Origin: Actinomycetota bacterium
Lineage (GTDB): Bacteria; Actinomycetota; Geothermincolia; Geothermincolales; RBG-13-55-18
Length of the DNA: 64,000 bases
Assembly: GCA_014360645.1 (NCBI GenBank)
Contig: JACIXD010000016.1
Coordinates: forward strand, 12,395-76,394
Reading direction: 5' to 3'
Shown: positions 21,879 through 56,832 of the stretch, piece after piece
How positions within the stretch are numbered: position 1 is the first letter of the stretch
How the letters are laid out: each line of letters opens with the position of its first letter
The notes under the pieces: model-generated
Told to the model about the DNA's origin: nothing
The model's input: only the letters and a program-made list of their open reading frames with translations
Database searches by the model: none
Made by a program: the position numbers and the translations under genes

Positions 21879-21982
21879 CACTCCCCTCCTGGATGGCCGG
21901 GAGCGGACGCCCGCCGGCGGCGCGCCCCGGCTTTCTCACTCACTGCAAACCGTTGCCGGCCCCTCTGCCGTCGAGACGGGGT

Positions 21983-22399
21983 TCAGTTCAGGGACATGAT
22001 CTTGGTGAGCCTGGTAAGGGCTCCCAGGTGCGTGAACATCCCCTTGATCTTCAGCTCCCGCTTGAGGAGCTTCTTCACCACCGCCATGCCCGTCTCGTCG
22101 AAGTACCAGGGCATGCCGTACTTGATGTTGATGTTGGCCAGGTCGAGCAGGGAGGCGGCGTCGGTCTCGATGGAGAGGTCGGGGGTGCCTTCCCTGCCGC
22201 CGTAAACGGTCAGGCTACCCCGGTTGAAGTCCATGGTGATCTCCGTCTCCGCGTCCACGGCGTGGATATAGACGCGCGCCTTGAGCCGGTTGAACTCCTT
22301 GAGCTTCTCCGGTTTCTCGATGTTGGCCTTGAGCATGTCCGAGAGCATCACCGCCATGGCCACCTCGTCGGCGCCGGGCGCTAGCTTGACATCCGCCAT
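21983..22399 (-). CDS. SCP2 sterol-binding domain protein
   Basis: C-terminal SCP2 signature …LKIKGMFTHLGALTRLTKIM. RBS AAGGAGGT is present. Confidence 0.7.
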   Translation of the reverse strand: MADVKLAPGADEVAMAVMLSDMLKANIEKPEKLKEFNRLKARVYIHAVDAETEITMDFNRGSLTVYGGREGTPDLSIETDAASLLDLANINIKYGMPWYFDETGMAVVKKLLKRELKIKGMFTHLGALTRLTKIMSLN

Positions 22400-22461
22400 C
22401 TGTTTACCTCCTTTTCAGGTCAAGCGGCGGGACCGCGGCCGAAAGTCCGCGCGGGTTCCGC

Positions 22462-23625
22462 TCAGAAAGCCTTCTTGTACACCTCCATCACCTGCTCCGC
22501 CTCGAAGATCATCTTGGGGTTGTAGACGATGGAGCCGTCGCAGAGGGCCATGTCCGAGGCCTCGGCGAGCCCCTCCTCCTCCACGCCCACCTCGCGCAGC
22601 GACTGGGGCATACCGATCTTTTTGGTGAGCTCGAACACGGCATCCACCGCCGCGCCGGCCGCCTCCTCGTCGCTCATGCCCCTCTCCCTGACTCCCATGG
22701 CCTCGGCCACGAAGGCGTAGCGGTCGGCGCATTCGTCCATGTTGTACATCATCACGTGGGGCAGCAGGATGGAGTTGGCCACCCCGTGGGGCACCTTGTA
22801 GAGGGCGCCCACGCAGTGGGCCATGGCGTGCACCAGTCCGACCTGGGCGTTGGAGAAGGCGATGCCGGCCATGGTCGCCGCGATCTGCTGCTGTCCGCGC
22901 GCCACCAGGTCGGAGCCGTTCTCCACGCAGATGGGGAGATACTGCATGATGAGGCGTATGGCTCCGAAAGCAAGGGTGTCGGAGATGGGCTCGGCCTGGA
23001 GGGCGTGGATGGCCTCGATGGCGTGGGTGAGGGCGTCCATGCCCGTCATGGCGGTGATGCGCGGCGGCATGGTCGCGGTCATCTCCGGGTCGAGGATGGC
23101 GGTGTTGGGCATGAGGTAGTCGTCCCCGTAGAGCAGCTTCTGGTTCTTCTCCCAGTCTTTGATCACGAAGGCGTAGGTGACCTCGCTCCCGGTACCGGCG
23201 GTGGTGGGGATGACCACGTGAGGGGTGATGGGATGGGTGAGCATCTGGAACCCCTGGTAGTCCTGTAGGTTCCCGCCCTCAGAGACGATGATGGCCATGC
23301 CCTTGGCGGTGTCGATGACGCTGCCGCCGCCCACGCTCACCAGGCAGTCGGCGCCCTTTTCGCGCGCGATCTCGGCGGCCTCGTTGACGATGTGGTACCC
23401 GGAGTCCTGGGGCACGCCGTCGAAGGTGCCCACGTGGCGGTTCCCCAGGGCCTTTTCCACCTTCTCGACGAGCCCCGCCTCCACCAGGCCTTTGTCGGTG
23501 ACCACGAAGGCACGGGAGCACTTGAGGTGGTCCACCTCCGCTCCCAGGTCCTTCACCGCCCCGACGCCGAACACCAGCCTGGTGTAGTTCTTGTAGATGA
23601 AGGAGAGGTCCTTATCGTAGGCCAT
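22462..23625 (-). CDS. Iron-containing alcohol dehydrogenase
   Basis: Fe-ADH signatures GGGSVIDTAKG and …HAMAHCVGALYKVPHG. RBS GGAGGTGA is present. Confidence 0.85.
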   Translation of the reverse strand: MAYDKDLSFIYKNYTRLVFGVGAVKDLGAEVDHLKCSRAFVVTDKGLVEAGLVEKVEKALGNRHVGTFDGVPQDSGYHIVNEAAEIAREKGADCLVSVGGGSVIDTAKGMAIIVSEGGNLQDYQGFQMLTHPITPHVVIPTTAGTGSEVTYAFVIKDWEKNQKLLYGDDYLMPNTAILDPEMTATMPPRITAMTGMDALTHAIEAIHALQAEPISDTLAFGAIRLIMQYLPICVENGSDLVARGQQQIAATMAGIAFSNAQVGLVHAMAHCVGALYKVPHGVANSILLPHVMMYNMDECADRYAFVAEAMGVRERGMSDEEAAGAAVDAVFELTKKIGMPQSLREVGVEEEGLAEASDMALCDGSIVYNPKMIFEAEQVMEVYKKAF

Positions 23626-24114
23626 GCATATCACCTCCGGTCTGGTTCCCGGGGACCGGCGCCCCGGGGTCATCGGGTATTCATGCGCCGCTGGTGCGGC
23701 CGCTCTCTACCTCCAAGTCTCGGCGTCCGCAGGCAGGGAGCGGGCCGCCTGCCATCATGCCCGTTGCACTCCGGTGACGCCGTGATCGATCTGCTCTGCT
23801 CCGAAAACCGCGGGTGGAAGAGAATGCCTCCCCGCCGCGGCATGCAGGTCGCGATCGCGGTGGCGGACTCTTCCGGGCCGCTCTCCTCGCCGGGCGCCGG
23901 CCTCCGGGACGGGATGCTCGCCCGCGCGCACCGTGCGCGCGGGCGGGATTCCCTTTGCTCCCGCGCCTCGCGCTGCCTGCCGCCCTCTCTCCGTGACGGC
24001 TTCCAGCGAATAGCGCCTTACCGTCACGCCACGGGAGGAAGCCTCTTCCTGCGCGGGCTCCAGGTCTCGGTTCCGAAAGCCCGTCTGAAAGCGAAAGGCT
24101 ACCAGCTGCCCCGG

Positions 24115-24678
24115 CTATATCCCCAACTCCTCCTCGGCCCGCTTGAGCAGCGCGCGCAGCTCCTCCTTGCCGGCATCGTCCAGTTCGTCGGGGAAGCGTG
24201 GGTTGGTGGAGGCGGAGAGGTCCACGAGGCGGGAGGCCGCCTTCACCGCACGCACGATGGTGGGGAGGTCGCCCTTGAGCTTGAGCTTACCCTGCATCAT
24301 GCCCTTGACGGTGTCCAGCTCCTTGGCCATGACCGCCTTCCAGCGCTCGTACTCGCCGGTGATGACGTAATCCCCGGCCTCGCCCACCTCGGCGGGCACG
24401 ATGCGCACGTAGTTGCAGTCGCCGTGCCAGAGGTCCATGAACATGTAGAGGTCCTTGTCCAGCCCTATCTCCGGCTTGGCGAGGATCTTGATGACCACCG
24501 AGCCTTCCCAGGTCTTGGCGGCCTCCTTGTACTCGGCGTCGTTCTGGATGAGCTCCTCGTACTGCTTCACCCACTCCGGGGTCCCCATGATATAGGGGGG
24601 TGACTGGCTCTCCATCCTCTCCTTTACGATGTTGTTGTAGGCCTCAACCCATTCGTCGGTGCCATACGGAATTGCCAT
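24115..24678 (-). CDS. SCP2-domain protein (second copy)
   Basis: Translation MAIPYGTDEWVEAYN…GKLKLKGDLPTIVRAVKAASRL. RBS AGGAGGGAA is present. The annotated 652-aa ORF on this strand is an antisense shadow; only this C-terminal part is coding. Confidence 0.6.
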   Translation of the reverse strand: MAIPYGTDEWVEAYNNIVKERMESQSPPYIMGTPEWVKQYEELIQNDAEYKEAAKTWEGSVVIKILAKPEIGLDKDLYMFMDLWHGDCNYVRIVPAEVGEAGDYVITGEYERWKAVMAKELDTVKGMMQGKLKLKGDLPTIVRAVKAASRLVDLSASTNPRFPDELDDAGKEELRALLKRAEEELGI

Positions 24679-25122
24679 ACCATTCCCTCCTCTGACTAGT
24701 CGAGTCGCCCAGCAGTGTCTCGCCGGAGGCAGGCGCACGAGGCACGAGTCTACCGGCATGAACAATATAATTAGTTTGCATACGATTATGCAACCGATCC
24801 GGCTTGGCCCCGGCGCATGCGGGCGCGGGCCGAAAGCCGCACCCCCGCCGCGCAAGGGCGTCCTCGGTTCCCGGCGCGTGCGGGCGCGGGGGGAAGAGCA
24901 GACTTTCAAGCGCGACGGGGAGGGAGGGGTCCGCGACGCGCGCGGGCGTCTGGGTAGGGGATGGTCAAGCCGGCGCGGACCGGCCTCTCGAAGGGCGCCG
25001 GGGAGGCGGTGCGCTACCCCGCAGCCCATTCGCACAGCTCCTGAGGGGCTTGCCGCGCGGGCGTTGGGAGGCCGGTTGTGATAGATTATGGGCATAGGCC
25101 TCAGAAAAAAAGGAGGGAGAGG

Positions 25123-26112
25123 ATGTTCGAACGGGATAAATGCGACCTTTGCGGAGACTGCGTCTTTCTGTGCCCCTACGTGGACTACGACCGCGAGCAG
25201 TCCATAGAGCAGTTCCGGGCCCTCAAGGAGGGCGGCACGCCCGAGATCGTCAGCCAGTGCGTCACCTGCGTGGCCTGCAACCAGTTCTGCGAGAAGGGCG
25301 CCAACCCCTTCGACCTCATCCTGAAGCGCCAGGAGGAGACGGGGGTGCTGAACATCCCGGAGCAGAACACCGAGGTCTTCCGCAACCTCCCCAAGGCCCC
25401 GAGCCAGGTGATAGCGGGAGAGCCGGGCAGGCCGACCCTTTCCCTCTGCAGTGTGGGGGACTTTATCCCCGGCCTTTTCGAGGGACCGCTCTTCCAGGGG
25501 ATGACGGTGCTCAAGGGAGGCGATTATTTCTGCAACGTGGGCTGGGTGCACCTGGGTTACGAGACGCCGGTGCGCGAGGGAGCGCGGCGGGTGGTGGAAA
25601 ACCTCGCCGCCACGGGGGCCTCGGAGATCATCTTCTACCACGACGACTGCTACGCTCTCCTGGCCTCCATGGTCAAGGAGTACGGCATAGAGGTGCCCTT
25701 CCGTCCCGTGCACATCATAGAGTATCTGCTGGAACAGGTCAGGGAGCGGAGGGACGAGGTCAAGCCCTTGAACATGAAGGTAGCCTACCAGCAGCCCTGC
25801 GCCTCGCGCTATACGCCCTGGAAGGACGAGCAGCTGGACGAGCTCTTCGAGCTCATCGGGGTTGAGAGGGTGGAGAGGAAGCACGACCGCAGGTTCGCCC
25901 TCTGCTGCGGGTCGCCCATGATGCCCCGCGACCGCGACAAGGCCATGGAGATAAAGAGGCGCAACATCGACGACGCCGTGGAACACGGAGCCCGGGCCAT
26001 GGCCTATCTCTGTCCCCTCTGCGTGCTCAACCTGCGCAAGGTGGCCGACGCCGCCGGGCTGGAGGGCTATCACATCATCGAGCTCACCAGGAAGGCCCTG
26101 GGTTATGCATGA
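25123..26112 (+). CDS. Fe-S oxidoreductase, HdrD/GlcF-like (4Fe-4S dicluster plus cysteine-rich CCG domains)
   Basis: Motifs CDLCGDCVFLCP…CVTCVACNQFC, then …QQPCASRY…ALCCGSP…YLCPLC. RBS AAGGAGGGAGAGG is present. Confidence 0.7.
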   Translation: MFERDKCDLCGDCVFLCPYVDYDREQSIEQFRALKEGGTPEIVSQCVTCVACNQFCEKGANPFDLILKRQEETGVLNIPEQNTEVFRNLPKAPSQVIAGEPGRPTLSLCSVGDFIPGLFEGPLFQGMTVLKGGDYFCNVGWVHLGYETPVREGARRVVENLAATGASEIIFYHDDCYALLASMVKEYGIEVPFRPVHIIEYLLEQVRERRDEVKPLNMKVAYQQPCASRYTPWKDEQLDELFELIGVERVERKHDRRFALCCGSPMMPRDRDKAMEIKRRNIDDAVEHGARAMAYLCPLCVLNLRKVADAAGLEGYHIIELTRKALGYA

Positions 26113-26506
26113 GACCCCGGGCGTTGCTGCTGATGTTCCGAGAGACCCTTATCGGCTCGATTCCCGGGGGTCGCGGGCATGTCCGGCGGGGGGCGGGACG
26201 CGTGCCGCGATGCGTGGTCGGCGGAGACGGGCCGGGATGCCGGTACGCGGGATAAAGAAAGATCATCGGGCATGTGACGGGAAGTTGACCCCCGAATTGT
26301 AATAATTGTAATGACACCGGCGGGGGCCTTGTCGGCACGCGGGTTGCTCCGTGAGGGTTGGGGAAAAAGCCTGGCGGTCGGGATGCCTGCGAAGGCCGTT
26401 TTGAGATTCCCGCCCGGTATCTCTCGCACCATGCACCATATATGCCTTTGCCTTCTACATGAACGGGATGCCGCCGTGGACGGCTTGCGGCCGGCGTGCC
26501 CCCGCG

Positions 26507-27166
26507 TTAAAGACCCCCACGTGCCTTTCCGATCAGGGACCCGATGAGGGAGGGGGCCCCGGCGGCGCTCTCCCCGTAGCCGTCGGCCCCCATGTCGGCG
26601 GCCACGTCGGAGGAGAGAGGGGCTCCTCCCACCACGATGACGGGCCGCGGCTCCAGGGACCGCGCCAGCTCCACGGTGCGGCGCATGTTGGGCAGGGTGG
26701 TGGTCATCATGGTGGAGAGGGCAAGTACCCCGGCGCCGCTGGCCCTGGTCTCGTCCAGGAACCTCTGGGGCGGCACGTCGTAGCCGAGGTCGATGACCCT
26801 GTATCCCTCGGCCTCGAGCATGGCCGCCACGAGGTTCTTCCCTATCTCGTGGACGTCTCCCTCCACCACGCCCAGCACCACCGTCTCGCCCGCGTCAAGG
26901 GCACCGGACTCCCGCAGGGAGGGAAGCACAGCGCGCATGCCGGCGTGCATGGCCTCGGAGGCCATGAGCAGCTCCGGAAGGAAGTACTCGTGGCGCTCGT
27001 AGAGATCCCCGGCCTCCCGCATGCCCCGGCAGAGACCGTTCTGGATGATCTCCCGCGCGGCAACCCCCCCGGCCAGGGCTTCCTCGCACCGCGACGCGGC
27101 CACTTCTTCCGCGCCGTCCCTCACCGCCGCTGCTATGGACGACAACACCAGGTCTTTTTCTCCCAT
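26507..27166 (-). CDS. Cobalamin (B12)-binding corrinoid protein
   Basis: B12-binding_2 helical bundle followed by a Rossmann-like B12 domain (…VVLGVVEGDVHEIGKNLVAAMLEAEGYRVIDLG…). It abuts the methyltransferase gene. Confidence 0.75.
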   Translation of the reverse strand: MGEKDLVLSSIAAAVRDGAEEVAASRCEEALAGGVAAREIIQNGLCRGMREAGDLYERHEYFLPELLMASEAMHAGMRAVLPSLRESGALDAGETVVLGVVEGDVHEIGKNLVAAMLEAEGYRVIDLGYDVPPQRFLDETRASGAGVLALSTMMTTTLPNMRRTVELARSLEPRPVIVVGGAPLSSDVAADMGADGYGESAAGAPSLIGSLIGKARGGL

Positions 27167-27177
27167 CTTGCTCACCC

Positions 27178-28326
27178 TCACTTTATCGGGTATTTGCCGT
27201 AGATCTCCGCCGCCCGCACCACTGCCAGGGCGTTGACCAGCTCGATGTTGGGCGGGTACTCGCAAGCCGGCGCCAGGACGTAGCCGCCCCCCGGCGCCAG
27301 CGCCCTGATCTGCTCCCGGGCGAGTTCCATGATCCTGGCGGGCGGCTCCATGAGGATGCTCTGGGTGGGGATGAGGCCGGCGATGGCCGTTCTCTTACCA
27401 TAATTTACCTTGAGCTCCGCCAGGCTCTCGCAGTCGTCCGGAAGGTCAGCGAGGGATACCATGAGCGGCTCTATGTATTCGAGCTGCAGGTCCAGATAGG
27501 GCCTGGTGCCGCAGTTATGAAGGGCCACCAGGGCGCCGTTTCGCCTGATCTCTTCCGCGATACGCCGGACATAGACCCCTTCCATCTCCACCCAAAGCTC
27601 GCGGGATATACCGGACTGCGAGGCGAAGAGGGTGTCCAGCATCACCGCGTCCACGCCGGTGTCGCAGAGGGCCCGCGCGTAATCCGTGAGCACCTCGGTG
27701 ATGACCTCCAGGGCGGCCTTGACCTTCTCGGGATGTCGCACGCAGTCCACGAACAGCCTCTGGGCGCCGCGCATCATGGAGAGGACCCCCAGGGGGCCGA
27801 AGATGAACCCCATGACCGGGTAGCGTATCCCGGCCTTCCTAGAGAGGATCCTGCCCAGCTTGATGCACATACCCATGCGCGGGGTGCTGCGTGGGTCGAA
27901 GGGCTCGAGGCGCTCGTAATCGTCCACCGTGGCGATACGCGGCCTGCGATAGTCCGGATATGCGGTGCTGTAAGGGGGATATACCATCTCCTGGCCGAAG
28001 TCGGCGGCCTCCACCGAGAGGTCGATGACGGTGTAGAGGACGTCTCCGCCGATGAGCTGGTTGGCGGCGATATAGGCCTCCGCCGCCGCCTCGGGATCGC
28101 GCGAGAACCTCTCGTAGGATATGCCGGTGAGGCGGCGCGCCGCCCCGAGGAGGAAGTGGGTCACCGGCACGCGGTCGGGCTCCTTATGAAAGGCGGCGCA
28201 CAGCACGCGTTCCAGGGGCAGGAGTTCCCCCACCTTCGCGTGCGCGTGGAAGAGGCCGGCGGCGGCGCGCATCATACCCATGGTGGGCCTGATGAGCCTG
28301 CCCCCGACGCGAGGATAGACGGACAT
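27178..28326 (-). CDS. Uroporphyrinogen-decarboxylase-family methyltransferase (MtaA/MtbA-like methylcobamide methyltransferase)
   Basis: URO-D fold throughout (…ALHNCGTRPYLDL…). It lies in an operon with the corrinoid protein. Confidence 0.7.
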   Translation of the reverse strand: MSVYPRVGGRLIRPTMGMMRAAAGLFHAHAKVGELLPLERVLCAAFHKEPDRVPVTHFLLGAARRLTGISYERFSRDPEAAAEAYIAANQLIGGDVLYTVIDLSVEAADFGQEMVYPPYSTAYPDYRRPRIATVDDYERLEPFDPRSTPRMGMCIKLGRILSRKAGIRYPVMGFIFGPLGVLSMMRGAQRLFVDCVRHPEKVKAALEVITEVLTDYARALCDTGVDAVMLDTLFASQSGISRELWVEMEGVYVRRIAEEIRRNGALVALHNCGTRPYLDLQLEYIEPLMVSLADLPDDCESLAELKVNYGKRTAIAGLIPTQSILMEPPARIMELAREQIRALAPGGGYVLAPACEYPPNIELVNALAVVRAAEIYGKYPIK

Positions 28327-28454
28327 TTTATTCCTCACCACCCTTGCTCTGTCTGACTGCGGTGGTGCTATGGTAGCATCCGGAAGCATGATTTGGAAAC
28401 CGAATGCGGAGCCAGACGGCCCGCCCCCTTAAATTCCGTTCGGGATTGACGATA

Positions 28455-31373
28455 ATGTTCATGAAAACCGGTCTTTCGCAAGGGGGCGACTTGCGCGAGT
28501 TGCGACGCATGATGGCCGTGACGGCCTCTATATCGTTTCTCTTACTGATCGCCGCGCCGCCCGCGTCAGCGCTGGGGAGCGCGGCTCGGTCAGATGCCTC
28601 TGTGCCGGGTTCCGGGATGCCTTCGGTCCGGGCCGAGGGCACCGTCTTCTCTCTCCCGGAGGGCCGCGCGGCAGAGGAGGCAGCGGCCCCCGCCGCCACG
28701 CCTTTCACCCCCTCCTCCACCCCCGGCACGGTGGGGGAACGATTCGGGGTGGCCTCCAGCCACATCAAGCTCTACGACGGGGCGACGGTGGAGAGGGAGT
28801 TCGCCGCCGCGGAAGATGCCGGCGCAGCCTGGCTGCGCTGCGACTTCGCCTGGTCGGACCTGGAACCCCTGCCGGGGGTGTGGAACTTCTCCGGGGCGGA
28901 CGCGGTGGTGGAGAGGGCCGGGACCCACGGCGTGAAGCTGCTGGGCATCCTGGGGGCGGCTCCCCCCTGGGCCAACGGGGGACAGGACTGGAGGTATCCC
29001 CCCACGGACCTCGAGGCGTGGCGGGGATACGTGCGCACCGTGGCCGCGCGCTACCGCGGCCGGGTGGCTGCCTGGGAGGTATGGAACGAGGAGAACATCC
29101 ACGCCTTCTGGATGCCGGAGCCCGACCCGGAAGCGTACCTGGAGCTGCTGGCCGCGGCCTCCGCTGAGATCCGTGCCGCCGATCCCTCGGCCGCGGTGGT
29201 CATGGGCGGAGTGGCGGGCCTGGGCCCAGACTACCTGGACGCCTGCCTCTCCCTGGGTGCGGCGGAATATATAGACGCCATCGCCTACCATCCCTACGCG
29301 GAGACCGTCGGGGAGGAGGGGCAGCCGCCGGAGGACACCTACCGTCCCAAGGAGAGGCTCTGCCGTAACCTGGTGGCCTTCGTGCACTGGCTGGTCTCGC
29401 TGTACACGGCGAAGGACCTGCAGGTCTGGATAACCGAGGTGGGCTGGCCCACCAGTCCCGAGGCACCGAGCGGGGTGGACGAGGACACCCAGGCGGACTA
29501 TCTGCTGCGCACCCTCATAAACTACGCCTCCACCGACGTGGACCGCGTGATCTGGTTCAACCTGCGCGATACCCACCTCAACGACTGGGACCGCTACGGG
29601 CTGCTCAGGCGTGACTTCACCCCCAAGGCCTCGTATGCCTTCTACTCCACCTTCACGCGGGTGTTGGGGGCGGCTGCCGGGATAGACAACGCCACGGTCT
29701 CCTTTTCCTGTTCCCGGCCCCAGACCCTGGAGGCGCACTGTTTCCGCATGGCCGGCGGCGGACTGGCGCTTTCGGCCTGGAAGAGCGACGACGCGGCCGA
29801 TTCCCTCTCCTTCACGGTCAACGACCCTGACTACGCGGACCCGCAGCGCGTGGATCCCTTGAGCGGCGCGACCTCCGCCCTGGCGGGGACGTCGCGGGAC
29901 GCCGCGGGAAGGATCACGGTGAGCGGGCTCCCCGTGGGGAAGAGGCCGGTCATCGTCACCCTCGAGAGGGGAGCCCCAGAACCCGGGCCGGAGCCGGGCC
30001 CGCAGCCGCCGGAGGGAGGCAGCACTTTCTACTTCGCCGAGGGCTACACGGGAGAGGGTTTCCAGGAGTACCTCTGCGTGGGGAACGTGGACGAGGCCGA
30101 GGCGGAGGTCGAGGTGGATTTCCTCTTCTCCGATGGCTCATCCTCCGTACAGCGGTTCAGGGTGCCGCGAGGCTCGCGTTTCACCCTCGACGTGAACGCG
30201 GCGGTGGGTCCGGGCAGGGAGGTGTCCATGGCGGTCACCTCTGAGCGGAGGGTGGTCGCCGAGCGCCCCATGTATTTCACCTACGGGAAGGGGTGGACGG
30301 GGGGTCACGCGGTCATGGGGGCGCGGGGTCCCGCGCGGGAGTGGTATTTCGCCGAGGGCTACACGGGAGAGGGTTTCGATCAGTGGCTGTGCGTGATGAA
30401 CCCGGGAGGTGAGGCCGCGGAACTGACCTTCCGTTTCCAGACGGAGGAGAAAGGGGAGGTGGTGGTGGATAGGCTCGGGGTGGCCCCGCGCTCCCGCGCC
30501 ACCTTCCGGGTCAACGAACTGCTCGGCGACGGTTTCCAGAACTCCTGCGCGGTCCAGGCCTCCGTGCCGGTGGTGGTAGAGCGGCCGGTATATTTCGATT
30601 ACCTGGGAACGGGTTCGCATCATTGGGAGGGGGGCCACTGCGTGATGGGGGCCACGTCCACCGGGCGCCGCTTTCTCTTCGCGGAGGGCTCCACGCGGGA
30701 GGACTTCGAGGAATGGATAACCCTCCAGAACCCCAACCCTTTCCCCATCGAGGTCTCGGCCCTCTACGTGTTCGGGCCGGGACAGGGGGAGCCGCTGGGC
30801 CGTACCTACCGCGTGGAGGGCGGGAGGAGGTCCACCATATTCGTGCCCGCGGAGGTAGGCCAGGACAGGGACGTGTCGGTGGAGCTGACCTCAGGGGACG
30901 GGTTCCTCGCGGAGCGGCCCGTGTACTTCTCATATGGCGGGGCGGGGGCTGACGGATGGGAGGGCGGGCACTGCGTCATCGGTGCGGGCGTCGGGGCGGA
31001 CGAATGGCGGTTCGCCGAGGGATACACTGGAGAGGGCTTCCATAACTGGCTGTGCGTGCTGAACCCGGGCGGCGAGGAGGCGGTGGTGGAGGTCGCCTAT
31101 CTCACCCAGGAGGAAGGAGCCCTCGAGCCGCGCACCCTGAACGTGCCGCCGCGTTCCCGCGCCACCCTCTTCGTCAACCAGCACGCCGGCGCCGGATACC
31201 AGCTCTCCTGCCGGCTGCGCGTGCTCGCAGGTCCCGCGGTGGTGGCCGAGCGGCCTATGTACTTCTCGCATGACGGGCGCGACGGCGGGCACGCCGTATT
31301 CCCATGGGGTCAGCCCCGGACATGGGACAATTATTTGAACCCCATGGAGCCGGAGTCTCCGCCTGCACAATAG
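28455..31373 (+). CDS. Secreted glycoside hydrolase (clan GH-A TIM barrel) with four C-terminal ~95-aa FAEG-type repeat domains
   Basis: Signal peptide MFMKTGL…AAPPASA. Catalytic acid-like motif WEVWNEEN and nucleophile-like motif VWITEVGWP. Repeats begin FYFAEGYTGEGF…, WYFAEGYTGEGF…, FLFAEGSTREDF… and WRFAEGYTGEGF…. The last ~23 codons are encoded by a REP2 copy (31306-31329). Confidence 0.7.
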   Translation: MFMKTGLSQGGDLRELRRMMAVTASISFLLLIAAPPASALGSAARSDASVPGSGMPSVRAEGTVFSLPEGRAAEEAAAPAATPFTPSSTPGTVGERFGVASSHIKLYDGATVEREFAAAEDAGAAWLRCDFAWSDLEPLPGVWNFSGADAVVERAGTHGVKLLGILGAAPPWANGGQDWRYPPTDLEAWRGYVRTVAARYRGRVAAWEVWNEENIHAFWMPEPDPEAYLELLAAASAEIRAADPSAAVVMGGVAGLGPDYLDACLSLGAAEYIDAIAYHPYAETVGEEGQPPEDTYRPKERLCRNLVAFVHWLVSLYTAKDLQVWITEVGWPTSPEAPSGVDEDTQADYLLRTLINYASTDVDRVIWFNLRDTHLNDWDRYGLLRRDFTPKASYAFYSTFTRVLGAAAGIDNATVSFSCSRPQTLEAHCFRMAGGGLALSAWKSDDAADSLSFTVNDPDYADPQRVDPLSGATSALAGTSRDAAGRITVSGLPVGKRPVIVTLERGAPEPGPEPGPQPPEGGSTFYFAEGYTGEGFQEYLCVGNVDEAEAEVEVDFLFSDGSSSVQRFRVPRGSRFTLDVNAAVGPGREVSMAVTSERRVVAERPMYFTYGKGWTGGHAVMGARGPAREWYFAEGYTGEGFDQWLCVMNPGGEAAELTFRFQTEEKGEVVVDRLGVAPRSRATFRVNELLGDGFQNSCAVQASVPVVVERPVYFDYLGTGSHHWEGGHCVMGATSTGRRFLFAEGSTREDFEEWITLQNPNPFPIEVSALYVFGPGQGEPLGRTYRVEGGRRSTIFVPAEVGQDRDVSVELTSGDGFLAERPVYFSYGGAGADGWEGGHCVIGAGVGADEWRFAEGYTGEGFHNWLCVLNPGGEEAVVEVAYLTQEEGALEPRTLNVPPRSRATLFVNQHAGAGYQLSCRLRVLAGPAVVAERPMYFSHDGRDGGHAVFPWGQPRTWDNYLNPMEPESPPAQ

Positions 31374-31598
31374 CGCCTTCACCACCTGTCCGATGGCGTC
31401 CGTTCTTCATCTTTCCGGCTCGCCACACGGGGCAGGGGCGGGAGGCGCGGGTGCGTGTGTGGAGACCGGAGCCGTCCCCTTTCCTCCGCACGGTCCCGTC
31501 CGCGGCCCTCGAGACGCACCCCATGGAATTTGCCCTATCCACCCACGGGGAGTAACCTGTAAGCAAGTATGTACAAGGAGACTGCCGTGAGGGTCAGC

Positions 31599-31623
31599 CC
31601 CGGACATGGGACAAAGGCGGGAG
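31599..31623 (+). repeat. REP2 copy
   Basis: GAGGGTCAGCCCCGGACATGGGACA. Confidence 0.7.
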
Positions 31624-31712
31624 GCGCGGGTGTGGGCACGGAGACCGGAGCCGACCCGTCATCACCCCCCGCAAGATCCGACCGCCTGTTCTCGAGACGG
31701 CCACCGCGCGCG

Positions 31713-34700
31713 GTGTCACATCGAGTCGAGGGACCTTGCCCACGGCGCAGGGCTTTCCCGTTCCGGACCGCGGGCGGCAAGCTCGCCCTAGCCTGCGCGG
31801 CGGCGCTGATTCTTTTGGCAATGATTTCCTCTACGGGGAGCATCGCCGGCACGGGCTCCCCCGCTCGGAGCGAGCTGCCGGACACCGCCCGTTTCACGCG
31901 CGATCCCTTCACCGCTCGGACCGGTGAGCTGCTGGTCGGACTTGAGGCCGCGGCGGCAGAGGGGGTCGGAAAGATGCTGGAGGGCGCGGGCGCGGGCCGG
32001 GTGGAGGAGGAGCTGCTGCGTTCGGGAAGGGTGTCCCTGAAGAGGATACGCCTGGACAGCGGCCTCTCGCCGCGTGAGGCGGCGTCGCTTTTGGACGTCC
32101 TACCCCAGGTGCTCTACGCAGAGCCGGACCACGCGGTGCGCATGGATTATTCTCCCGTTGACCCCGCTTACCAGCCCGAGCAGTGGGGCCTCCACAACTA
32201 CGGCCAGCTTATCGGAGGAACGGAAGGCCTTCCCGGGGCGGATATCGGAGCCGAGGAGGCCTGGGACATCGAGCGGGGCCTCTCCAACCCCGTCACGGTG
32301 GCGGTGGTGGACACGGGCCTGGACCTATACCATCCCGACCTGGAGGACAAGATTTGGGTGAACGCGGGAGAGGTGCCGGGGAACGGCGTGGACGACGACG
32401 CCAACGGATATGTCGACGACACGCGGGGGTACAACTGGGCGGGCATCACCCAGGGCCGGTATTACTATTATGATTACGCCGAGAAGAGGTACTACACCAC
32501 CGCCTGGTATTTCGGCTACAGCTTAACCAACCGGTTGCTGGCGCAGTCCATAAGGGGTGCCGGCTGTCCCCTCACCCACGTGGGTATCATCCTGCAGAGG
32601 GTCGGAAACCCGGCGGAGGGCGTCACCGTCTCGCTGCGATCCTCCCTCTCCGGCGCGGACCTGTCATCCCTGTATATCGCCCCCGGTGAGGTGAGCGAGT
32701 CGGGGGGAGAGATCTACCTGCCCCTTTCCGTTCCCGTGAACCTGGCGGAGGGAGCCACCTATTACCTCGTCTTCCGGACCTCCAACCTCGATACCTCGAA
32801 CCATTACTACCTCTACCACAACTTCGTGGACGACCCGCCCGACCCCGACACCGACCAGTACGACCCTTACCTCGACGGCCGCGAATACCGGTGGACTGGA
32901 TCGGCGTGGGAGGAGTTCGGGAGCTGGGACTTCTACTTCCGCACCAACCCCAACCCCCGACCCCGCGACGACAACGGCCACGGCACCCACGTGGCGGGGA
33001 TCATCGGGGCCGAGGAGGGGAACGCGGAGGGAGGGGTGGGGGTCTCCTTCGGTGCCGGGATCATCCCTCTCAAGGTGCTGGACTGCTCGGGCAGCGGCTA
33101 TTACTCGGATATCATCTCCGGCATGAGGTACGCCGCTGACGGCGGCGCCGCGGTGATCAACCTCAGCCTGGGAGGCACGTCGTATTCCGACGCCATGCAG
33201 GAGGCGGTGGACTACGCGCGGGCGAAGGGCGCCGTGGTTCTGGCCGCGGCGGGCAACAGCGGGGACGGCACCGTGCTCTATCCCGCGGGATGCGAGGGGG
33301 TAGTGGGGGTGGGCGCTACCACCAACCGCGATGTGCGCGCCGCATTTTCCAGCTACAACCAGTATGTGGACCTCACGGCGCCGGGTTGGTTCGTCTATTC
33401 CACCATGCCCACCTACCCCGCCGCCCTTAACTCCCTGGGATACGGACAGGGTTACGACTATCTATCGGGCACCTCCATGGCCACCCCCATGGCCTCGGGT
33501 CTGGCCGCCCTGGTGCGTTCCCTGCGGCCGGGTTACGGACCTGACGAGGTGTGGGTCGCCATGCGGGACCACGCCAGGGACCTCGGGCCCCCCGGACGCG
33601 ACGACGAGTACGGCTACGGGCGCATAGACGCCGCCGCCACCCTGGAGAGCATTCAGGTCGCCCCCTACATCTCCTCCCTCGCGCCCTCCCGGGGAAGGGT
33701 GGGGGAGAAGGTGACCATCGAGGGCAGCGCCTTCGGGAGCGTCCGGGGCGCCTCATCCGTCTCCTTCGGCGGGGTGGAGGCCTCCCTCTACGACGCCTGG
33801 TCCGACACCGCCGTGACCTGCTACGTGCCCCCGGGCGTGGCGGGAGTGGTGGAGGTGACCCTGACCACCCCCGGTGGGATCTCCAACGCCCGCGCCTTCA
33901 GCGTCTTGCCTGCCATCTCCTCCCTCGCGCCCTCCCGGGGAAGGGTGGGGGAGAAGGTGACCATCGAGGGCAGCGCCTTCGGGAGCGTCCGGGGCGCCTC
34001 ATCCGTCTCCTTCGGCGGGGTGGAGGCCTCCCTCTACGACGCCTGGTCCGACACCGCCGTGACCTGCTACGTGCCCCCGGGCGTGGCGGGAGTGTTGAAG
34101 GTGACCCTGACCACCCCCGGTGGGATCTCCAACGCCGTGCCTTTCACGGTCGAGGAAGCACCCCCCTCCACCACCTGGTACCTCGCCGAGGGCTGCACGG
34201 AGGGGGGCATGGAGACCTGGGTGCTGGTGCAGAACCCGGGAGACGCCCCCGCCTCCATAGCCATGGATTTCCAGACCGCCACGGGACGGGTGGAAGGCCC
34301 CCGCGAGACGGTGCCCGCCCGCTCCCGCCGCACCTACGAGGTGAGCAGGTACGTCACCGCCTGGGACGTCTCCACCACCGTCACCTCCGACCTCCCGGTG
34401 GTGGCGGAGCGCGCCATGTACGGCGGGAACCGCACCTGGGCCCACGACTCCGTGGGGGTCACCGCCCCCTCCACCACCTGGTACCTCGCCGAGGGCTGCA
34501 CGGAGGGGGGCATGGAGACCTGGGTGCTGGTGCAGAACCCGGGAGACGCCCCCGCCTCCATAGCCATGGATTTCCAGACCGCCACGGGACGGGTGGAAGG
34601 CCCCCGCGAGACGGTGCCCGCCCGCTCCCGCCGCACCTACGAGGTGAGCAGGTACGTCACCGCCTGGGACGTCTCCACCACCGTCACCTCCGACCTCCCG

Positions 34701-34772
34701 GTGGTGGCGGAGCGCGCCATGTACGGCGGGAACCGCACCTGGGCCCACGACTCCGTGGGCTACACGCCCTGA
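31713..34772 (+). CDS. Secreted S8 subtilisin-like peptidase with 2 IPT/TIG-like domains and 2 FAEG-type repeat domains
   Basis: Catalytic triad motifs VAVVDTGLD, NGHGTHVAGII and GTSMATPMASG. Signal peptide …LALACAAALILLAMISS. The start is uncertain: a GTG at 31713 is proposed, and the ATG at 31569 would read through REP2. Two perfect internal tandem duplications are present (33661-34140 as 2x240 bp, and 34141-34740 as 2x300 bp). Confidence 0.7.
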   Translation: MSHRVEGPCPRRRAFPFRTAGGKLALACAAALILLAMISSTGSIAGTGSPARSELPDTARFTRDPFTARTGELLVGLEAAAAEGVGKMLEGAGAGRVEEELLRSGRVSLKRIRLDSGLSPREAASLLDVLPQVLYAEPDHAVRMDYSPVDPAYQPEQWGLHNYGQLIGGTEGLPGADIGAEEAWDIERGLSNPVTVAVVDTGLDLYHPDLEDKIWVNAGEVPGNGVDDDANGYVDDTRGYNWAGITQGRYYYYDYAEKRYYTTAWYFGYSLTNRLLAQSIRGAGCPLTHVGIILQRVGNPAEGVTVSLRSSLSGADLSSLYIAPGEVSESGGEIYLPLSVPVNLAEGATYYLVFRTSNLDTSNHYYLYHNFVDDPPDPDTDQYDPYLDGREYRWTGSAWEEFGSWDFYFRTNPNPRPRDDNGHGTHVAGIIGAEEGNAEGGVGVSFGAGIIPLKVLDCSGSGYYSDIISGMRYAADGGAAVINLSLGGTSYSDAMQEAVDYARAKGAVVLAAAGNSGDGTVLYPAGCEGVVGVGATTNRDVRAAFSSYNQYVDLTAPGWFVYSTMPTYPAALNSLGYGQGYDYLSGTSMATPMASGLAALVRSLRPGYGPDEVWVAMRDHARDLGPPGRDDEYGYGRIDAAATLESIQVAPYISSLAPSRGRVGEKVTIEGSAFGSVRGASSVSFGGVEASLYDAWSDTAVTCYVPPGVAGVVEVTLTTPGGISNARAFSVLPAISSLAPSRGRVGEKVTIEGSAFGSVRGASSVSFGGVEASLYDAWSDTAVTCYVPPGVAGVLKVTLTTPGGISNAVPFTVEEAPPSTTWYLAEGCTEGGMETWVLVQNPGDAPASIAMDFQTATGRVEGPRETVPARSRRTYEVSRYVTAWDVSTTVTSDLPVVAERAMYGGNRTWAHDSVGVTAPSTTWYLAEGCTEGGMETWVLVQNPGDAPASIAMDFQTATGRVEGPRETVPARSRRTYEVSRYVTAWDVSTTVTSDLPVVAERAMYGGNRTWAHDSVGYTP

Positions 34773-47120: not shown

Positions 47121-48077
47121 TCATGCGTGGGGCGTACCGCACCGGCGGCAGAACCGCTCCTGCGCCGATGCCCGGGGATGGCCGCACCTGCGGCAGTAAA
47201 GGGGCGTGGGCGCGGCGCCGCTCGCCTGGCCGCCGGGGATGTCGCCACCGGCTTCTGTCCCCATACCCCCATCGCCGGTCTCCGGGGCGGTGCCCGCGGC
47301 CGCCGGGGGCATGGGCTCGCCCGCGCCGGCCTGCGCGGCGGGCGGAGCATGAGGCGTCAGGGAGGCGGGAGCCCTGAAGGGAGCGGCCCGGCGGGTGAGC
47401 AGGAAGAGCAGCAGGAGCAGGGACACCGCCATGAGCAGGGAGAAGACGAGGATCAACAGGGTCTTGTTGGCCGCCAGGAAGCCTTTCTCCGCCTTCGCCG
47501 GGGGCAACCTGTAGGTGAGGGTGCCGGAGCTCTCGTCGAAACGGGCTTCCCGCGCGCCCGCAGGCAGGTCGATCACCACCCTCTCCTCCAGCCCCATGGT
47601 CTCGAAGAGGGTCCACTCGTTGTTGAGGGTCCAGTACGCCTCCAGGACCACCTCGTCGTCGCTCTCCCTGTCGAGGGCGTAGCCCGCGTATCCGAAGACC
47701 GTCCAACCGTCCTTGAGGTTATAGGCCAGGCCCGGGGTGCGGAAGGAGATGGTCACCGTGGCCTTGCGGGCATCCACCTTCACCTCGAAGTCCTCCACCT
47801 CCCCCACTCCGCTGTCGGAACGGTAGCGGCGGGAGAGGAGGCCGGGGTTCTCTTCGAACAGGTAACCGTACTCGTCAAACCAGCCCCGGTCGTAGGTGAT
47901 CACGTCGGTGATGCGGGCGTCTCCCACCTCGTCTATCTCCATCCGGTATTCCTCCCGGAGGCTGAACTCTCCCTCTTTGCCCAGTTCCTGCGCCGCCGCC
48001 CCCGGGGCGTAGGGAATGAGCAACGCGCACAGGAGCGCGAGGGGGAAAAGCGCGCGCAGGACCCTGCTGCCTACCAT
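47121..48077 (-). CDS. Secreted/membrane-anchored protein with a C-terminal TM helix and a cytoplasmic Zn-ribbon (CRRCG…CRRCG)
   Basis: Signal peptide, a mid/C-terminal TM helix, and a cysteine pair at the C-terminus. It overlaps the upstream gene by 7 nt. Confidence 0.5.
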   Translation of the reverse strand: MVGSRVLRALFPLALLCALLIPYAPGAAAQELGKEGEFSLREEYRMEIDEVGDARITDVITYDRGWFDEYGYLFEENPGLLSRRYRSDSGVGEVEDFEVKVDARKATVTISFRTPGLAYNLKDGWTVFGYAGYALDRESDDEVVLEAYWTLNNEWTLFETMGLEERVVIDLPAGAREARFDESSGTLTYRLPPAKAEKGFLAANKTLLILVFSLLMAVSLLLLLFLLTRRAAPFRAPASLTPHAPPAAQAGAGEPMPPAAAGTAPETGDGGMGTEAGGDIPGGQASGAAPTPLYCRRCGHPRASAQERFCRRCGTPHA

Positions 48078-49186: not shown

Positions 49187-49267
49187 TCCCGTGCTGCTAA
49201 CGCAGCGCTCTTGGCCAACATCCTTCGACCAGCATTATACCCCGGGCGTGTGATAAAATCTCACTCT

Positions 49268-54004: not shown

Positions 54005-54877
54005 ATGGGCTTGACGGAGGAGAGCGGTGGTACGTCCGGTGTTTACAGGGTTGCGGTGGTCTACCACCCCGATTTCTCCACCCGGGGATATCCCGCCCTC
54101 AAGGGACGCGTGGCGCCCGCTTTCCAAGAGCTGGAGTCGCGCGGCCTGCTGGAGCTGGAGGGAGTGCGGGTCCTGGAGGCGGAGCCGGCCGACGAGGAGC
54201 TGGCCGCCGAGGTGCACAGCGATTCCCACCTCCGCGGGGTGAGGGCCAGCGGTCATTACGATATCGCACTGCTCTCGGCGGGGGCGGTGATCCGCGGGGC
54301 CCGCGAGGCGGGGGAGGGGAGAGCGCTGGCTTCCTTCTGCTTCACGGGGGCGGCTGGGCACCATGCCTCCCACGACGGATTCTGGGGGTTCTGCTTCCTC
54401 AACGACGTGGCCATGGCGGTTACACACCTGAGGGAGGACGCGGGCTTGCGGCGCTTCGCGATCATAGACATCGATCCCCATTACGGGGACGGGACCAGGG
54501 ACATCCTCGGGCCGGACCCCGAGGTGCTGCACGTGAACTTCCATTCGGGTCCCGGCATGGGAAGGAACGGAGGTCCCCACAACCTGGACATCGCCCTTCC
54601 CCATGACGCGGACGACCGCCGCTTCCTGGCGGGGGTGGAGGAGGCCTTGGAGGCCGTGCGGGGGTTCGAGCACGACCTCCTCTTCATCATCTTCGGGCAT
54701 GACGGCCACCGCGACGATTACGGCGCCTTCGAGCTGGGAGACGAGGCCTACGCCTCCTTCGCGCGCAGGGTGAAGGAGGTCTTCCCGGAGCGCGTGTGTT
54801 ACGTGCTCTCGGGCGGCGCGGACGCCCGGGTGGCGCGCCGTGCGGTGGGGGACGTGGTGGAGGTGCTGGCGCGGTGA
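54005..54877 (+). CDS. Histone-deacetylase-family protein (AcuC/HDAC-like; arginase/deacetylase fold)
   Basis: Metal-binding motifs …HHASHDGFWGFCFLND… and …DIDPHYGDGT. Confidence 0.8.
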   Translation: MGLTEESGGTSGVYRVAVVYHPDFSTRGYPALKGRVAPAFQELESRGLLELEGVRVLEAEPADEELAAEVHSDSHLRGVRASGHYDIALLSAGAVIRGAREAGEGRALASFCFTGAAGHHASHDGFWGFCFLNDVAMAVTHLREDAGLRRFAIIDIDPHYGDGTRDILGPDPEVLHVNFHSGPGMGRNGGPHNLDIALPHDADDRRFLAGVEEALEAVRGFEHDLLFIIFGHDGHRDDYGAFELGDEAYASFARRVKEVFPERVCYVLSGGADARVARRAVGDVVEVLAR

Positions 54878-56832
54878 ACGCCGGGCGCTCGCCGCGGAGG
54901 GGACGAAAGAGGGACAAGGCCGCATCGCTCCTCCTGGTCGCCGCCCTGTCCCTTGCCGCCGTCCTCTGTCCCGGAGGTATGCCTGCCGGGGAGAGGGCGG
55001 CCGCCTCTTCCTCTCCCCGCGCCGTGCTCACCTTCGACGACGGCTACGGGTTCGACCACCGCATCCTCGACTTCCTGTCCTCGCGGGGCATCGCCGCCTC
55101 CGCCTTCGTCATCGGCTCCTGGGCGCAGCGGAACCCCGAGCTGCTCAAGGAGATGAACGCTCTGGGGTGGGACATCTGCAACCACACCCAGAACCACCCC
55201 TGGCTCACCAGGCTCACCGACGACCGGATACGGGCGGAGCTCAACGCCTGCCAGGCGGCGATCGCCTCCATCACCGGACAGAACCTCCCCGTCTTCCGCC
55301 CCCCCGGGGGCTTCATCGACGCCAGGGTCACCGCCGCGGCGGCCTCGGTGGGCCTCTCCCCGGTGATGTGGGACTTCGACAGCATGGACGCCCTCAACAC
55401 CTCCCTCTCGGTGCAGGAGCGCGTCAACCGTATGGTGGCCTCGGCCCGGGACGGCAGCATCATCCTCTTCCATTTCGGGGGACGCGGCACCATCGACCTG
55501 GTCACCGGAGTGGTCGAAGGCCTGCGCCGCAGGGGCTTTACCTTCGTGACCCTGAGCGAGCTATATGGATGGAAGAAGATGGTGCGGGGCGGAGAGGCCG
55601 GTCCCGGGGCCAGGGAGCCGGCCTTGCGCCAGGTCTTCGCCGAGGGCACCACGCGAGAGGGCTTCGAGGAATGGCTGCTGGTCTTCAACCCCAACCCCGA
55701 CCCGGCCGCCCTGCATGCCAGCTATTATGCCGGGGAGGAGTGGGTTCGGAAAGAGTACGAGGTACCGGCGCGGGGCCGCCTCTCGGTCGCCGTGAACCGG
55801 GAGGTGCCCTGGAGAGGGGACGTGGCGGCGGTGCTGGAGGCCTCTCTCCCCGTGGTCGCGGAGCGGAGCATCTATTTCAACCGCGGGGGCGGTTGCGGGG
55901 GCGGCACCACCGCCCTGGGGGTGGCGGAGGGCGCCACTGTCCACTATCTCCCCGAGGGCACGGTGAGGCTTGGATTCGAGGCCCACCTTGCCCTCTTCAA
56001 CCCGGGAGCGAGGACGGCGGCGGTGAGGGTGGCGCTGCACGGCGCGGCAGGAGAGGCCTGGTCCGGCGAGCTGGAGTTGAGACCGCTCATGCGCCTCACC
56101 CTGCGCCTCAACGACCTCGTGCCGGAGGGCGATTATTCCGCCACCGTGCACGCCACCGAGAAAGTGGCCGTGGAGCGCTCCCAGTATTTCGTCTACGACG
56201 GTTTCTGCCCGGGGGCGAGTTGTTCCCCGGGGATGACGGAGCCGGCCACGAAGCTCTGTTTCGCCGAGGGCACCACCCGCGAGCGGTGCGATTCCTACCT
56301 GGCCCTCTTCAACCCCTGCGCCTACGCTACGTGCCTGGTGCTGAGGATGCATGTGTCGGACGGCAGCGTGAGAGAGGAGAGGATGTGCCTGGGGGCGGGG
56401 GAGCGAAAGACGCTGCGCCTCGACCGCTATCTGCCGCCCGGCTGCGACTACTCCCTGGAGGTCCTTAGCCTCCTGCCAGTGGCCGCGGAACGCGCGGCCT
56501 ACTTCCAAGACCACAACCTCGCGGGAGGGTTCTGCGACGTGGGGGTGGCGGACCCCTCGCGGCGGTGGATCTTCGCGGAGGGAAGCACGGGGCCGGGGTT
56601 CAGGCAGTGGCTTATCCTCTTCAACCCCAACCCTCGAGAGCTGGCGGCTTCGGTCACCTATCTCTGCAGCGGGGAGGAGCTGGCGCGCGAGTACCCGCTG
56701 CCGCCGGGAGGGAGGGTCACGGTGGACGTGGGGGCGGAGGTCGGGGAACGTCCCGAGGTGGCCATGGAGGTCTCCTGCGAGGAGGGGATAGCGGCGGAGC
56801 GCGCCCTGTATTTCGACCGCATGATGCCTTGA
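54874..56832 (+). CDS. Secreted polysaccharide deacetylase (CE4 NodB domain) with four FAEG-type repeat domains
   Basis: The GTG start overlaps the upstream TGA (GTGA). The signal peptide has an R/K-rich n-region. NodB motifs TFDDGY, …HTQNHP… and …FRPPGG. Repeats begin VFAEGTTREGF…, HYLPEGTVRLGF…, LCFAEGTTRERC… and WIFAEGSTGPGF…. Confidence 0.75.
   Translation: MNAGRSPRRGRKRDKAASLLLVAALSLAAVLCPGGMPAGERAAASSSPRAVLTFDDGYGFDHRILDFLSSRGIAASAFVIGSWAQRNPELLKEMNALGWDICNHTQNHPWLTRLTDDRIRAELNACQAAIASITGQNLPVFRPPGGFIDARVTAAAASVGLSPVMWDFDSMDALNTSLSVQERVNRMVASARDGSIILFHFGGRGTIDLVTGVVEGLRRRGFTFVTLSELYGWKKMVRGGEAGPGAREPALRQVFAEGTTREGFEEWLLVFNPNPDPAALHASYYAGEEWVRKEYEVPARGRLSVAVNREVPWRGDVAAVLEASLPVVAERSIYFNRGGGCGGGTTALGVAEGATVHYLPEGTVRLGFEAHLALFNPGARTAAVRVALHGAAGEAWSGELELRPLMRLTLRLNDLVPEGDYSATVHATEKVAVERSQYFVYDGFCPGASCSPGMTEPATKLCFAEGTTRERCDSYLALFNPCAYATCLVLRMHVSDGSVREERMCLGAGERKTLRLDRYLPPGCDYSLEVLSLLPVAAERAAYFQDHNLAGGFCDVGVADPSRRWIFAEGSTGPGFRQWLILFNPNPRELAASVTYLCSGEELAREYPLPPGGRVTVDVGAEVGERPEVAMEVSCEEGIAAERALYFDRMMP

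Follow-up and report, generated by a model that had tools for sequence, protein, structure and literature searches.

The ASRAH superfamily of De Souza, Iyer and Aravind (Biol Direct 2009, PMC2739507) comprises solo cytoplasmic proteins, secreted four-copy amidase fusions of Chloroflexi, and two-copy actinobacterial lipoproteins, which are now classified as DUF5719; the authors noted that forms other than the solo proteins have either two or four domains in every case. TM1070 and ASRT each assemble as homotetramers, and sugar binding has been predicted for ASRAH domains (PMC2739507). Our literature search returned nothing under DUF5719 and, under ASRAH, only the 2009 paper. Here we describe ASRAH domains in a stretch of 64,000 nucleotides (nt) from an Actinomycetota bacterium (assembly GCA_014360645.1, contig JACIXD010000016.1), referred to as the window; counts given for the window refer to this whole stretch, and features lie on the + strand unless stated otherwise. 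Three secreted enzymes encoded there, a glycoside hydrolase (GH), an S8 peptidase and a CE4 deacetylase, carry arrays of a β-rich "FAEG" repeat. We consider it on balance probable that these arrays consist of ASRAH domains, that tandem copies evolve in concert, and that the arrays retain proteins at the envelope by binding glycans, all three taken together.

Identity and fold of the repeat

With very high confidence, we identify the FAEG repeat as an ASRT-like (ASRAH) eight-stranded β-sandwich domain belonging to the Pfam families ASRT (PF07100) and DUF5719 (PF18986). The DUF5719 profile scores 56.1 (GH), 33.1 (S8) and 44.5 bits (CE4, profile positions 48-238) against a gathering cutoff of 26.2, and ASRT scores 41 bits in the GH protein (cutoff 25). 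When single units were compared with Pfam, DUF5719 and ASRT were the sole matches, the next best being Malt_amylase_C at E=0.13. A profile of nine units retrieved TM1070 (1NC7, E=1.7e-5) and ASRT (2II7, E=2.8e-3) from the PDB, in an alignment that pairs WYFAEGY with WFFPDGY at the start and LCVMNPG with LCIMNTG at the strand-2 turn.

AlphaFold2 (AF2) models of the GH tetrad (predicted local distance difference test, pLDDT, 94.5; predicted template-modelling score, pTM, 0.91) and of the S8 dyad (pLDDT 95.9, pTM 0.89) were compared with known structures using Foldseek, which assigned a probability of 1.00 solely to 1NC7 and 2II7-2IIA. For these matches of predicted structures, the target-normalised template-modelling score (TMt) was 0.65-0.83 overall with a root-mean-square deviation (r.m.s.d.) of 1.7-4.3 Å, and for 1NC7 it was 0.78-0.80 with 2.0-2.6 Å over 112-115 columns (S8 dyad, TMt 0.78); neither model matched any other fold with low r.m.s.d. 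Since the 1NC7 match spans 112-115 columns, the whole period of 101-111 residues represents one domain without flexible linkers, i.e., the W-x-G-G-H-x-V-x-G "linker" is β-structured and part of the fold, and the structural unit is longer than the ~95 residues proposed in an initial annotation of this DNA. Consecutive units, four or, in S8, two, are predicted to form a single rigid body.

The matches in Pfam, the PDB and fold space contradict a novel unnamed fold, and there was no significant match to an Ig-like or curated carbohydrate-binding module (CBM) family (CBM_*, Big, fn3, PKD). The initial annotation had named no family for the repeat; DUF5719 and ASRT match above their gathering cutoffs, the fold is that of TM1070 and ASRT, and ASRAH has been described since 2009 (PMC2739507), so that the family is a known one, with a role that is predicted rather than established. 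Its account of a shared β-rich module on three secreted enzymes holds: a hidden Markov model (HMM) of the ten units finds four copies in the GH, two in the S8 and four in the CE4 protein, numbers that agree with the dyads and tetrads characteristic of ASRAH proteins, and it matches nowhere else when the window is translated in six frames. The motif given there, W-Y-F-A-E-G-x-T ... N-P ... R-x-T-x-x-V-N ... V-A-E-R-P-x-Y-F, is likewise correct. NCBIfam provides no name for any of the three C-terminal arrays.

Pairwise identity among the ten window units is 25-54%; only the S8 pair, at 100%, falls outside this range. E7, G8, N22, R53, E81, R82 and Y85 are invariant in all ten, and over 1,438 units the conserved positions are A6, E7, G8, T10, N22, P23, G39, R53, S69, E81, R82 and Y85. 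The asparagine at the end of strand 2, a hallmark of the superfamily, is present in 10/10 window units and in 99% of the 1,438, and is followed by proline in 91%. Tryptophan at the start of strand 1 is the majority residue of the 1,438-unit consensus and occurs in five of the ten window units (GH r2 and r4, both S8 units and CE4 r4); F, L, Q or H takes its place in the other five. In the secreted units the SHEshChhN motif is replaced by [DEQ]-[EQT]-W-[LV]-[CTL]-[VL]-x-N. The GH tetrad (30006-31370) contains five nearly invariant cysteines, an observation made in a secreted array, three of which occupy the pocket position of r1, r2 and r4, and two the GGHCV segments after r2 and r3.

All three module-bearing genes are long open reading frames (ORFs) with high third-position GC content (GC3) on the + strand; the GH and S8 genes lie side by side, with the CE4 gene 20 kb downstream. 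The GH gene (28404..31373), assigned from its ORF and from Pfam and PDB comparisons, encodes a PslG-like glycosidase of family GH39 (clan GH-A), which is secreted and carries an ASRAH tetrad in its C-terminal part. Its probable start is M36 at 28509, followed by the signal peptide MMAVTASISFLLLIAAPPASA with LG after the cleavage point, and the alignment with its ortholog (L002, 71% identity) in the metagenome-assembled genome (MAG) Ch49 begins at M36. The catalytic domain matches Pfam GH39, GH10 and GH42, and its top PDB relative is the GH39 exopolysaccharide hydrolase PslG (4zn2/5bx9, E=6.5e-30). The four units, each an HMM domain, are r1 (residues 540-644, 30021..30335, pLDDT >95), r2 (645-754, 30336..30665), from which the Pfam ASRT match at residues 660-725 derives, r3 (755-865, 30666..30998), where threonine replaces the TM1070 pocket cysteine, and r4 (866-965, 30999..31298), after which a 24-residue tail follows, partly with low model confidence.

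The S8 gene (31569..34772; ORF and Pfam) encodes a secreted subtilisin/mycosin-like peptidase in the order prodomain, S8 domain, TIG, TIG, ASRAH, ASRAH. Pfam matches, besides DUF5719, Peptidase_S8 (E=8.5e-56) and two TIG domains (E=1.7e-29), and the mycosin-like NCBIfam match is under cutoff; the ASRAH units are HMM domains at residues 866-966 and 967-1067. The Pfam S8 match covers 443 residues on a profile of 288 positions, which implies an insertion of ~150 residues inside the catalytic domain. This insertion (residues ~300-460, window ~32460-32950) is rich in tyrosine, YYYYDYAEKRYYTTAWYFGY. An exact-sequence look-up of the S8 protein gave no database record.

The third gene (54874..56832, in an ORF from 54796; ORF and Pfam) probably starts at the GTG at 54874 and encodes a secreted CE4 polysaccharide/peptidoglycan deacetylase (Polysacc_deac_1, E=7.3e-33) with a divergent C-terminal tetrad. 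Its CE4 domain is closest to the peptidoglycan deacetylases PdaB, PdaA and PgdA, yet scores under the NCBIfam cutoffs. The units, again HMM domains, are residues 280-384, 385-487, 488-588 and 589-678, numbered from 54796 (55633-55947, 55948-56256, 56257-56559 and 56560-56829).

Homogenised and position-specific arrays

Two domain types are tandemly duplicated in the S8 gene. The TIG duplication (33668..34136) consists of copies at 33668-33890 and 33914-34136, which are identical at 221/223 nt with a period of 246 bp and mismatches at 33849 and 33852; Tandem Repeats Finder (TRF) reports it at 33668-34143 (1.9 copies, 98%, score 922). The ASRAH-unit duplication (34162..34759) consists of copies at 34162-34456 and 34465-34759, identical at 295/295 nt with a period of 303 bp (TRF, 34162-34759, 2.0 copies, 100%, score 1196); both were also delineated by offset comparison. 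Each duplication is in frame and comprises exactly one domain, and the two are separate but adjacent; with their different periods they represent two tandem events, which excludes duplication of a single TIG-module block. The initial annotation was right about the near-perfect identity, but the periods are 246 and 303 bp rather than 240 and 300 bp.

The closest relative of the S8 C-terminus, P0400/L001 from MAG Ch49 (GCA_013178005.1), is 76% identical and a syntenic ortholog: as in the window, TIG-TIG-unit-unit-stop is followed by a glycerol kinase gene, and the two glycerol kinases are 91% identical. The units of P0400 share 284/295 nt with each other and ~84% with those of the window. A layout common to both genomes, together with copies that are closer within each gene than between the orthologs, argues for concerted evolution of the S8 units and the TIG pair, which we regard as likely, rather than for the one-off, very recent duplication suggested initially. 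Homogenisation of the units and TIG domains would proceed via gene conversion or unequal crossing-over. Among peptidase-type arrays, 34/108 contain a unit pair with at least 70% identity and six of the 108 a pair with at least 90%, vs 0/112 glycosidase-type arrays at the 70% level.

Near-perfect tandem duplications inside a gene carry a risk of copy-number error in assembly, as the initial annotation had cautioned, and the S8 repeats may have been mis-assembled, either as spurious duplications or, more plausibly, by collapse of four near-identical units (and more TIG domains) to two. The repeats of 295 and 223 bp, 99-100% identical, exceed short-read k-mers; 108/119 relatives of the S8 C-terminus have four units and only three have two; many database relatives are contig-end fragments, and one relative, P0388, shows frameshift debris; and the contig of the ortholog P0400/L001 itself breaks within the TIG repeat. 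Fourfold arrays with 98-99% nt identity, of 4.0 x 303 bp and 4.0 x 312 bp, are moreover present in contigs of 241 kb and 259 kb, which we suspect to be long-read assemblies; their occurrence in contigs of such length indicates that homogenised arrays are real and not merely short-read artefacts. Against mis-assembly, both repeats are in frame, unit 1 ends in the inter-unit junction VGVTAPSTTW and unit 2 in the C-terminus VGYTP-stop, both canonical in homologs, the independent MAG shows TIG-TIG-unit-unit-stop with units distinguishable by 11/295 nt differences, and dyads are a known ASRAH arrangement (PMC2739507). We consider mis-assembly of the S8 repeats somewhat unlikely. The canonical junctions and the identical layout in the syntenic ortholog weigh particularly against a spurious duplication, and the S8 protein of the window has at least two units.

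Homogenisation is extreme in the fourfold arrays of the 241-kb and 259-kb contigs, at the loci L082 (2562-3799) and L083 (2614-3814) of sample ERZ25039527, one encoding a stand-alone tetrad protein and the other an Amidase_3 fusion, with units of the same subfamily as those of S8. In P0388 (569 residues), a relative of the S8 C-terminus, a frameshifted stretch rich in Arg and Pro takes the place of unit 2, while the units on either side are near-identical; a mistake of assembly or base calling within a homogenised array is the probable cause.

Arrays of the glycosidase type behave differently. The 30 nearest relatives of each GH unit hold the same position in their own arrays (r1 with r1, etc.) on proteins with other partners, and whole tetrads are 50-68% identical across partners, whereas units inside a tetrad are ~40% identical. 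Position-matched relatives, and an identity that is higher between tetrads than within them, imply that the four units travel as a fixed hetero-tetrad cassette. The residue at the pocket cysteine site, which is cysteine in glycosidase-type r1, r2 and r4, threonine in r3 and leucine in the peptidase type, fits such a cassette. The CE4 tetrad is divergent, 31% identical to the GH tetrad and without clear positional correspondence.

Distribution and proposed role

A profile search covering 1.84 billion metagenome cluster representatives returned 8,388 matches to the unit profile at E<=1e-3 and 3,350 at E<=1e-30. Among the best 150 matches, 137 have exactly four units and eight have eight, and nearly all have a signal-peptide-like N-terminus. 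Relatives numbered 1,537 for the GH tetrad and 828 for the S8 C-terminus; exactly four units were found in 112/113 and 108/119 of them, respectively. Named relatives are MAGs of Actinomycetota, Candidatus Geothermincolia, Ca. Solincola and Ca. Anoxymicrobiaceae, with proteins called "DUF5719 family protein"; looking up the members of the clusters yielded hardly any taxonomic information. A scan of one genome per species gave at least 567 loci, the best 80 of which are all in Actinomycetota MAGs, with 5-9 loci in single MAGs. Lineage specificity, proposed initially for the repeat as such, applies to the particular tetrad cassette and not to the domain.

The fusion partners are diverse. In 79 partner regions of these 80 loci, 45 different Pfam families were detected, including TIG, PD40, Ycf48/BNR, GH39-like, GH17, GH5, β-helix, S8, β-lactamase, Amidase_3, PGA_cap and Ice_binding domains. 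Frequent partners of peptidase-type arrays are two families of peptidoglycan hydrolases, Peptidase_M23 and Amidase_3 (the latter, among S8-type relatives, in P0384, P0469 and P0483), and fusions to CAP domains occur as well. The tetrad is a portable module on Sec-exported proteins of unrelated activity in Geothermincolia-like Actinomycetota.

In 134 of the best 150 matches, no more than 40 residues separate the end of the array from the C-terminus. This terminal position, 9-15 residues before the end in 134/150 and with a conserved tail GGHDVVGYxP, could point to a C-terminal secretion or sorting signal like the C-terminal domain of the type IX secretion system (T9SS), one that a machinery for export or attachment would recognise and cleave off. 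A length of ~430 residues is, however, very large for a signal, stand-alone tetrad proteins exist, and the tetrad follows the signal peptide at the N-terminal side in M23 and Amidase_3 fusions, as it does in ~12/80 loci; such common N-terminal placements exclude an obligatory C-terminal sorting signal, and we hold a sorting signal of any kind to be very improbable.

What the partners of the conserved array share is location and not substrate, which favours a module for retention on envelope glycans. The array would bind an envelope glycan, either peptidoglycan or a wall-associated polysaccharide, and thereby keep the attached glycosidase, protease or deacetylase on the cell surface, much as SLH, CWB2 or LysM repeats act in other Gram-positive bacteria, with the covalent tetrad standing in for the homotetramer of solo TM1070 and ASRT. 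We give retention at the cell envelope via glycan binding an even chance; the surface-anchoring or substrate-binding role considered in the initial annotation is plausible.

The array may instead act as a substrate-targeting CBM that binds the polysaccharide attacked by each enzyme (chitin, peptidoglycan or an exopolysaccharide), so raising its local concentration, and does not anchor the enzyme to the envelope of the producing cell. The β-sandwich fold, which has a cleft in TM1070, and the predicted sugar binding (PMC2739507) would suit such a function, as would the many glycan-active partners (GH39-like, GH17, GH5, CE4, Amidase_3, M23 and SpoIID), and for peptidoglycan hydrolases the substrate and the anchor polymer are the same. 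The same cassette, 50-68% identical, is nevertheless found on proteases, β-lactamase-like proteins, β-propellers, Ycf48/BNR, β-helix and ice-binding-like proteins and TIG-only proteins, i.e., on partners without a common glycan substrate, and no curated CBM family was matched; substrate targeting is unlikely in our judgement. Fusion to peptidoglycan hydrolases is frequent and in either orientation, as is typical of wall-binding modules, and it speaks against a ligand-free scaffold, i.e., a stiff stalk, a protein that builds S-layer-like lattices or a unit for docking of other proteins. A pure spacer would also have no need for a position-specific and strongly conserved four-unit cassette. The homotetrameric state of TM1070 and ASRT (PMC2739507), the prediction of the tetrad as one rigid body (pTM 0.91), the invariant charged residues E7, R53, E81 and R82, which might form inter-domain salt bridges, and the existence of eight-unit arrays are in line with a scaffold, to which we assign a low probability.

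Several observations weigh against retention by glycan binding and against the joint reading of which it is part. The sugar-binding idea for ASRAH domains is itself contextual (PMC2739507), and ASRT, the sole experimentally studied member, is reported to interact with a rhodopsin and to bind and loop DNA (PMC8660804). Of the two SHEshChhN residues that line the TM1070 pocket, the histidine is not retained and the cysteine is present in some units only, and the polar set E7, T10, R53, E81, R82 and Y85 could be structural or interfacial instead of ligand-binding. A high pTM indicates a fixed inter-domain arrangement without telling which; we infer that the geometry of the tetrad resembles that of the TM1070 tetramer. 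The taxonomic picture, finally, is biased by the search patterns used in the genome-collection scan.

A more far-reaching proposal, which we put forward tentatively and at less than even odds, combines envelope retention with the two array types: the position-specific ASRAH hetero-tetrad may be the main surface-display system of Geothermincolia-like Actinomycetota, binding a lineage-specific wall glycopolymer as a covalent, TM1070-mimicking pseudo-tetramer, and a second, homogenising subtype on peptidoglycan hydrolases and S8 peptidases may be kept uniform by gene conversion.

The module represents new members, in new fusion contexts, of a known superfamily, and nothing categorically new; in the literature searched, we found no description of how far it has expanded, of its cassette behaviour or of its concerted evolution. 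The assignment provides a name, a fold and a testable role for a module that tags very many secreted proteins of an uncultured, deep-branching actinobacterial class, most of the at least 8,388 module-bearing representatives being annotated "hypothetical" or "DUF5719". Were the tetrad a wall anchor, the surface proteome of these organisms could be read directly from sequence, the tetrad would serve as a handle by which the as yet uncultivable cells could be labelled or captured, and the ASRT-like prediction of 2009 would reach beyond a single amidase family to cover display in general. Near-identical intragenic repeats are, in addition, a recurrent cause of contig breaks and copy-number error in the MAGs of this group.

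Genomic surroundings and relation to known systems

The GH and S8 genes are neighbours of genes for a URO-D-like methyltransferase, a corrinoid protein and a glycerol kinase. Beside the GH gene, at 20013-28389 on the - strand, there is an anaerobe-type metabolic block with an aldehyde:ferredoxin oxidoreductase, an Fe-alcohol dehydrogenase, a B12-binding corrinoid protein, a URO-D/MtaA-like methyltransferase and two SCP2-domain proteins, one of which has 652 residues and is otherwise without Pfam match. Functional coupling of the GH, S8 and CE4 genes was considered and rejected, since of the three only GH and S8 lie next to each other, and the genes around them have unrelated metabolic functions.

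At 49037-52746 (+), ahead of the CE4 gene, lies a sugar-nucleotide/glycosyltransferase cluster with an NTP_transferase, a weak dTDP-sugar-isomerase-like ORF, an NDP-sugar dehydratase/epimerase and a GT2 protein; its product could be a wall polysaccharide with a bearing on the proposed ligand. The stop codon of an HDAC-family deacetylase gene (54002-54877, +) overlaps the probable CE4 GTG start by 4 bp, which suggests translational coupling of two different deacetylases. Elsewhere in the window, Rfam assigns 15169-15256 (+) to selenocysteine tRNA (RF01852, 59.2 bits, cutoff 47), in disagreement with ARAGORN, which calls an 89-nt tRNA-Cys(gca), and a high-GC3 ORF of 318 residues at 47121-48077 (-) has no Pfam match at E<=1e-5.

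Compared with TM1070 (1NC7) and ASRT (2II7-2IIA), the window units are predicted to have the same eight-stranded β-sandwich; they share the W-x-F-[AP]-[ED]-G start, the L-C-[VI]-x-N turn and, in the tetrads, four domains per functional assembly. The two known proteins, however, are solo, cytoplasmic and assemble as non-covalent homotetramers, whereas the window units are joined covalently to one another and form part of secreted enzymes. The pocket histidine of SHEshChhN is absent from the secreted units, which are defined by E7, T10, R53, E81, R82 and Y85 instead, and the features of the solo ASRT-like family (a single domain, no signal peptide, SHEshChhN) do not describe the multi-domain secreted proteins of the window.

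The Chloroflexi amidase tetrads (family 2 of PMC2739507), compared here by their description, are likewise secreted and have four tandem ASRAH domains beside a cell-wall enzyme, and the same binding of peptidoglycan or sugar has been proposed for them; Amidase_3 and M23 proteins, too, carry tetrads of peptidase-type units. The Chloroflexi tetrads were described as always fused to an amidase and as coming mainly from Roseiflexus, Chloroflexus and Herpetosiphon (PMC2739507), while the present arrays have an actinobacterial host and at least 45 partner families, and none of the three module-bearing window proteins has an amidase partner.

DUF5719 proper (family 3 of PMC2739507), a surface lipoprotein with two ASRAH domains, is similarly extracellular, from Actinomycetota, and a dyad of the same domain. 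The window proteins match only positions ~47-238 of its 319-position profile, without the N- and C-terminal extensions, their N-terminal parts are GH39, S8 and CE4 domains, and two of the three have four units. The canonical lipobox [LVI][ASTVI][GAS]C is absent from all three, and the WhiB/glycosyltransferase/inactive-zincin neighbourhood of DUF5719 was not seen, with no WhiB or zincin among the 20 neighbouring proteins scanned.

SLH triplets, CWB2 triplets, LysM and GW repeats retain proteins non-covalently on wall polymers. Like the ASRAH arrays, they come in a small, set number of tandem copies, placed terminally on many secreted proteins of one organism that are otherwise unrelated, often peptidoglycan hydrolases; their folds differ from that of ASRAH, and they would be functional analogues only, wall binding by the ASRAH tetrad being a proposal. 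If the arrays do constitute a display system, it would be a fourth major non-covalent wall anchor beside SLH, CWB2 and LysM.

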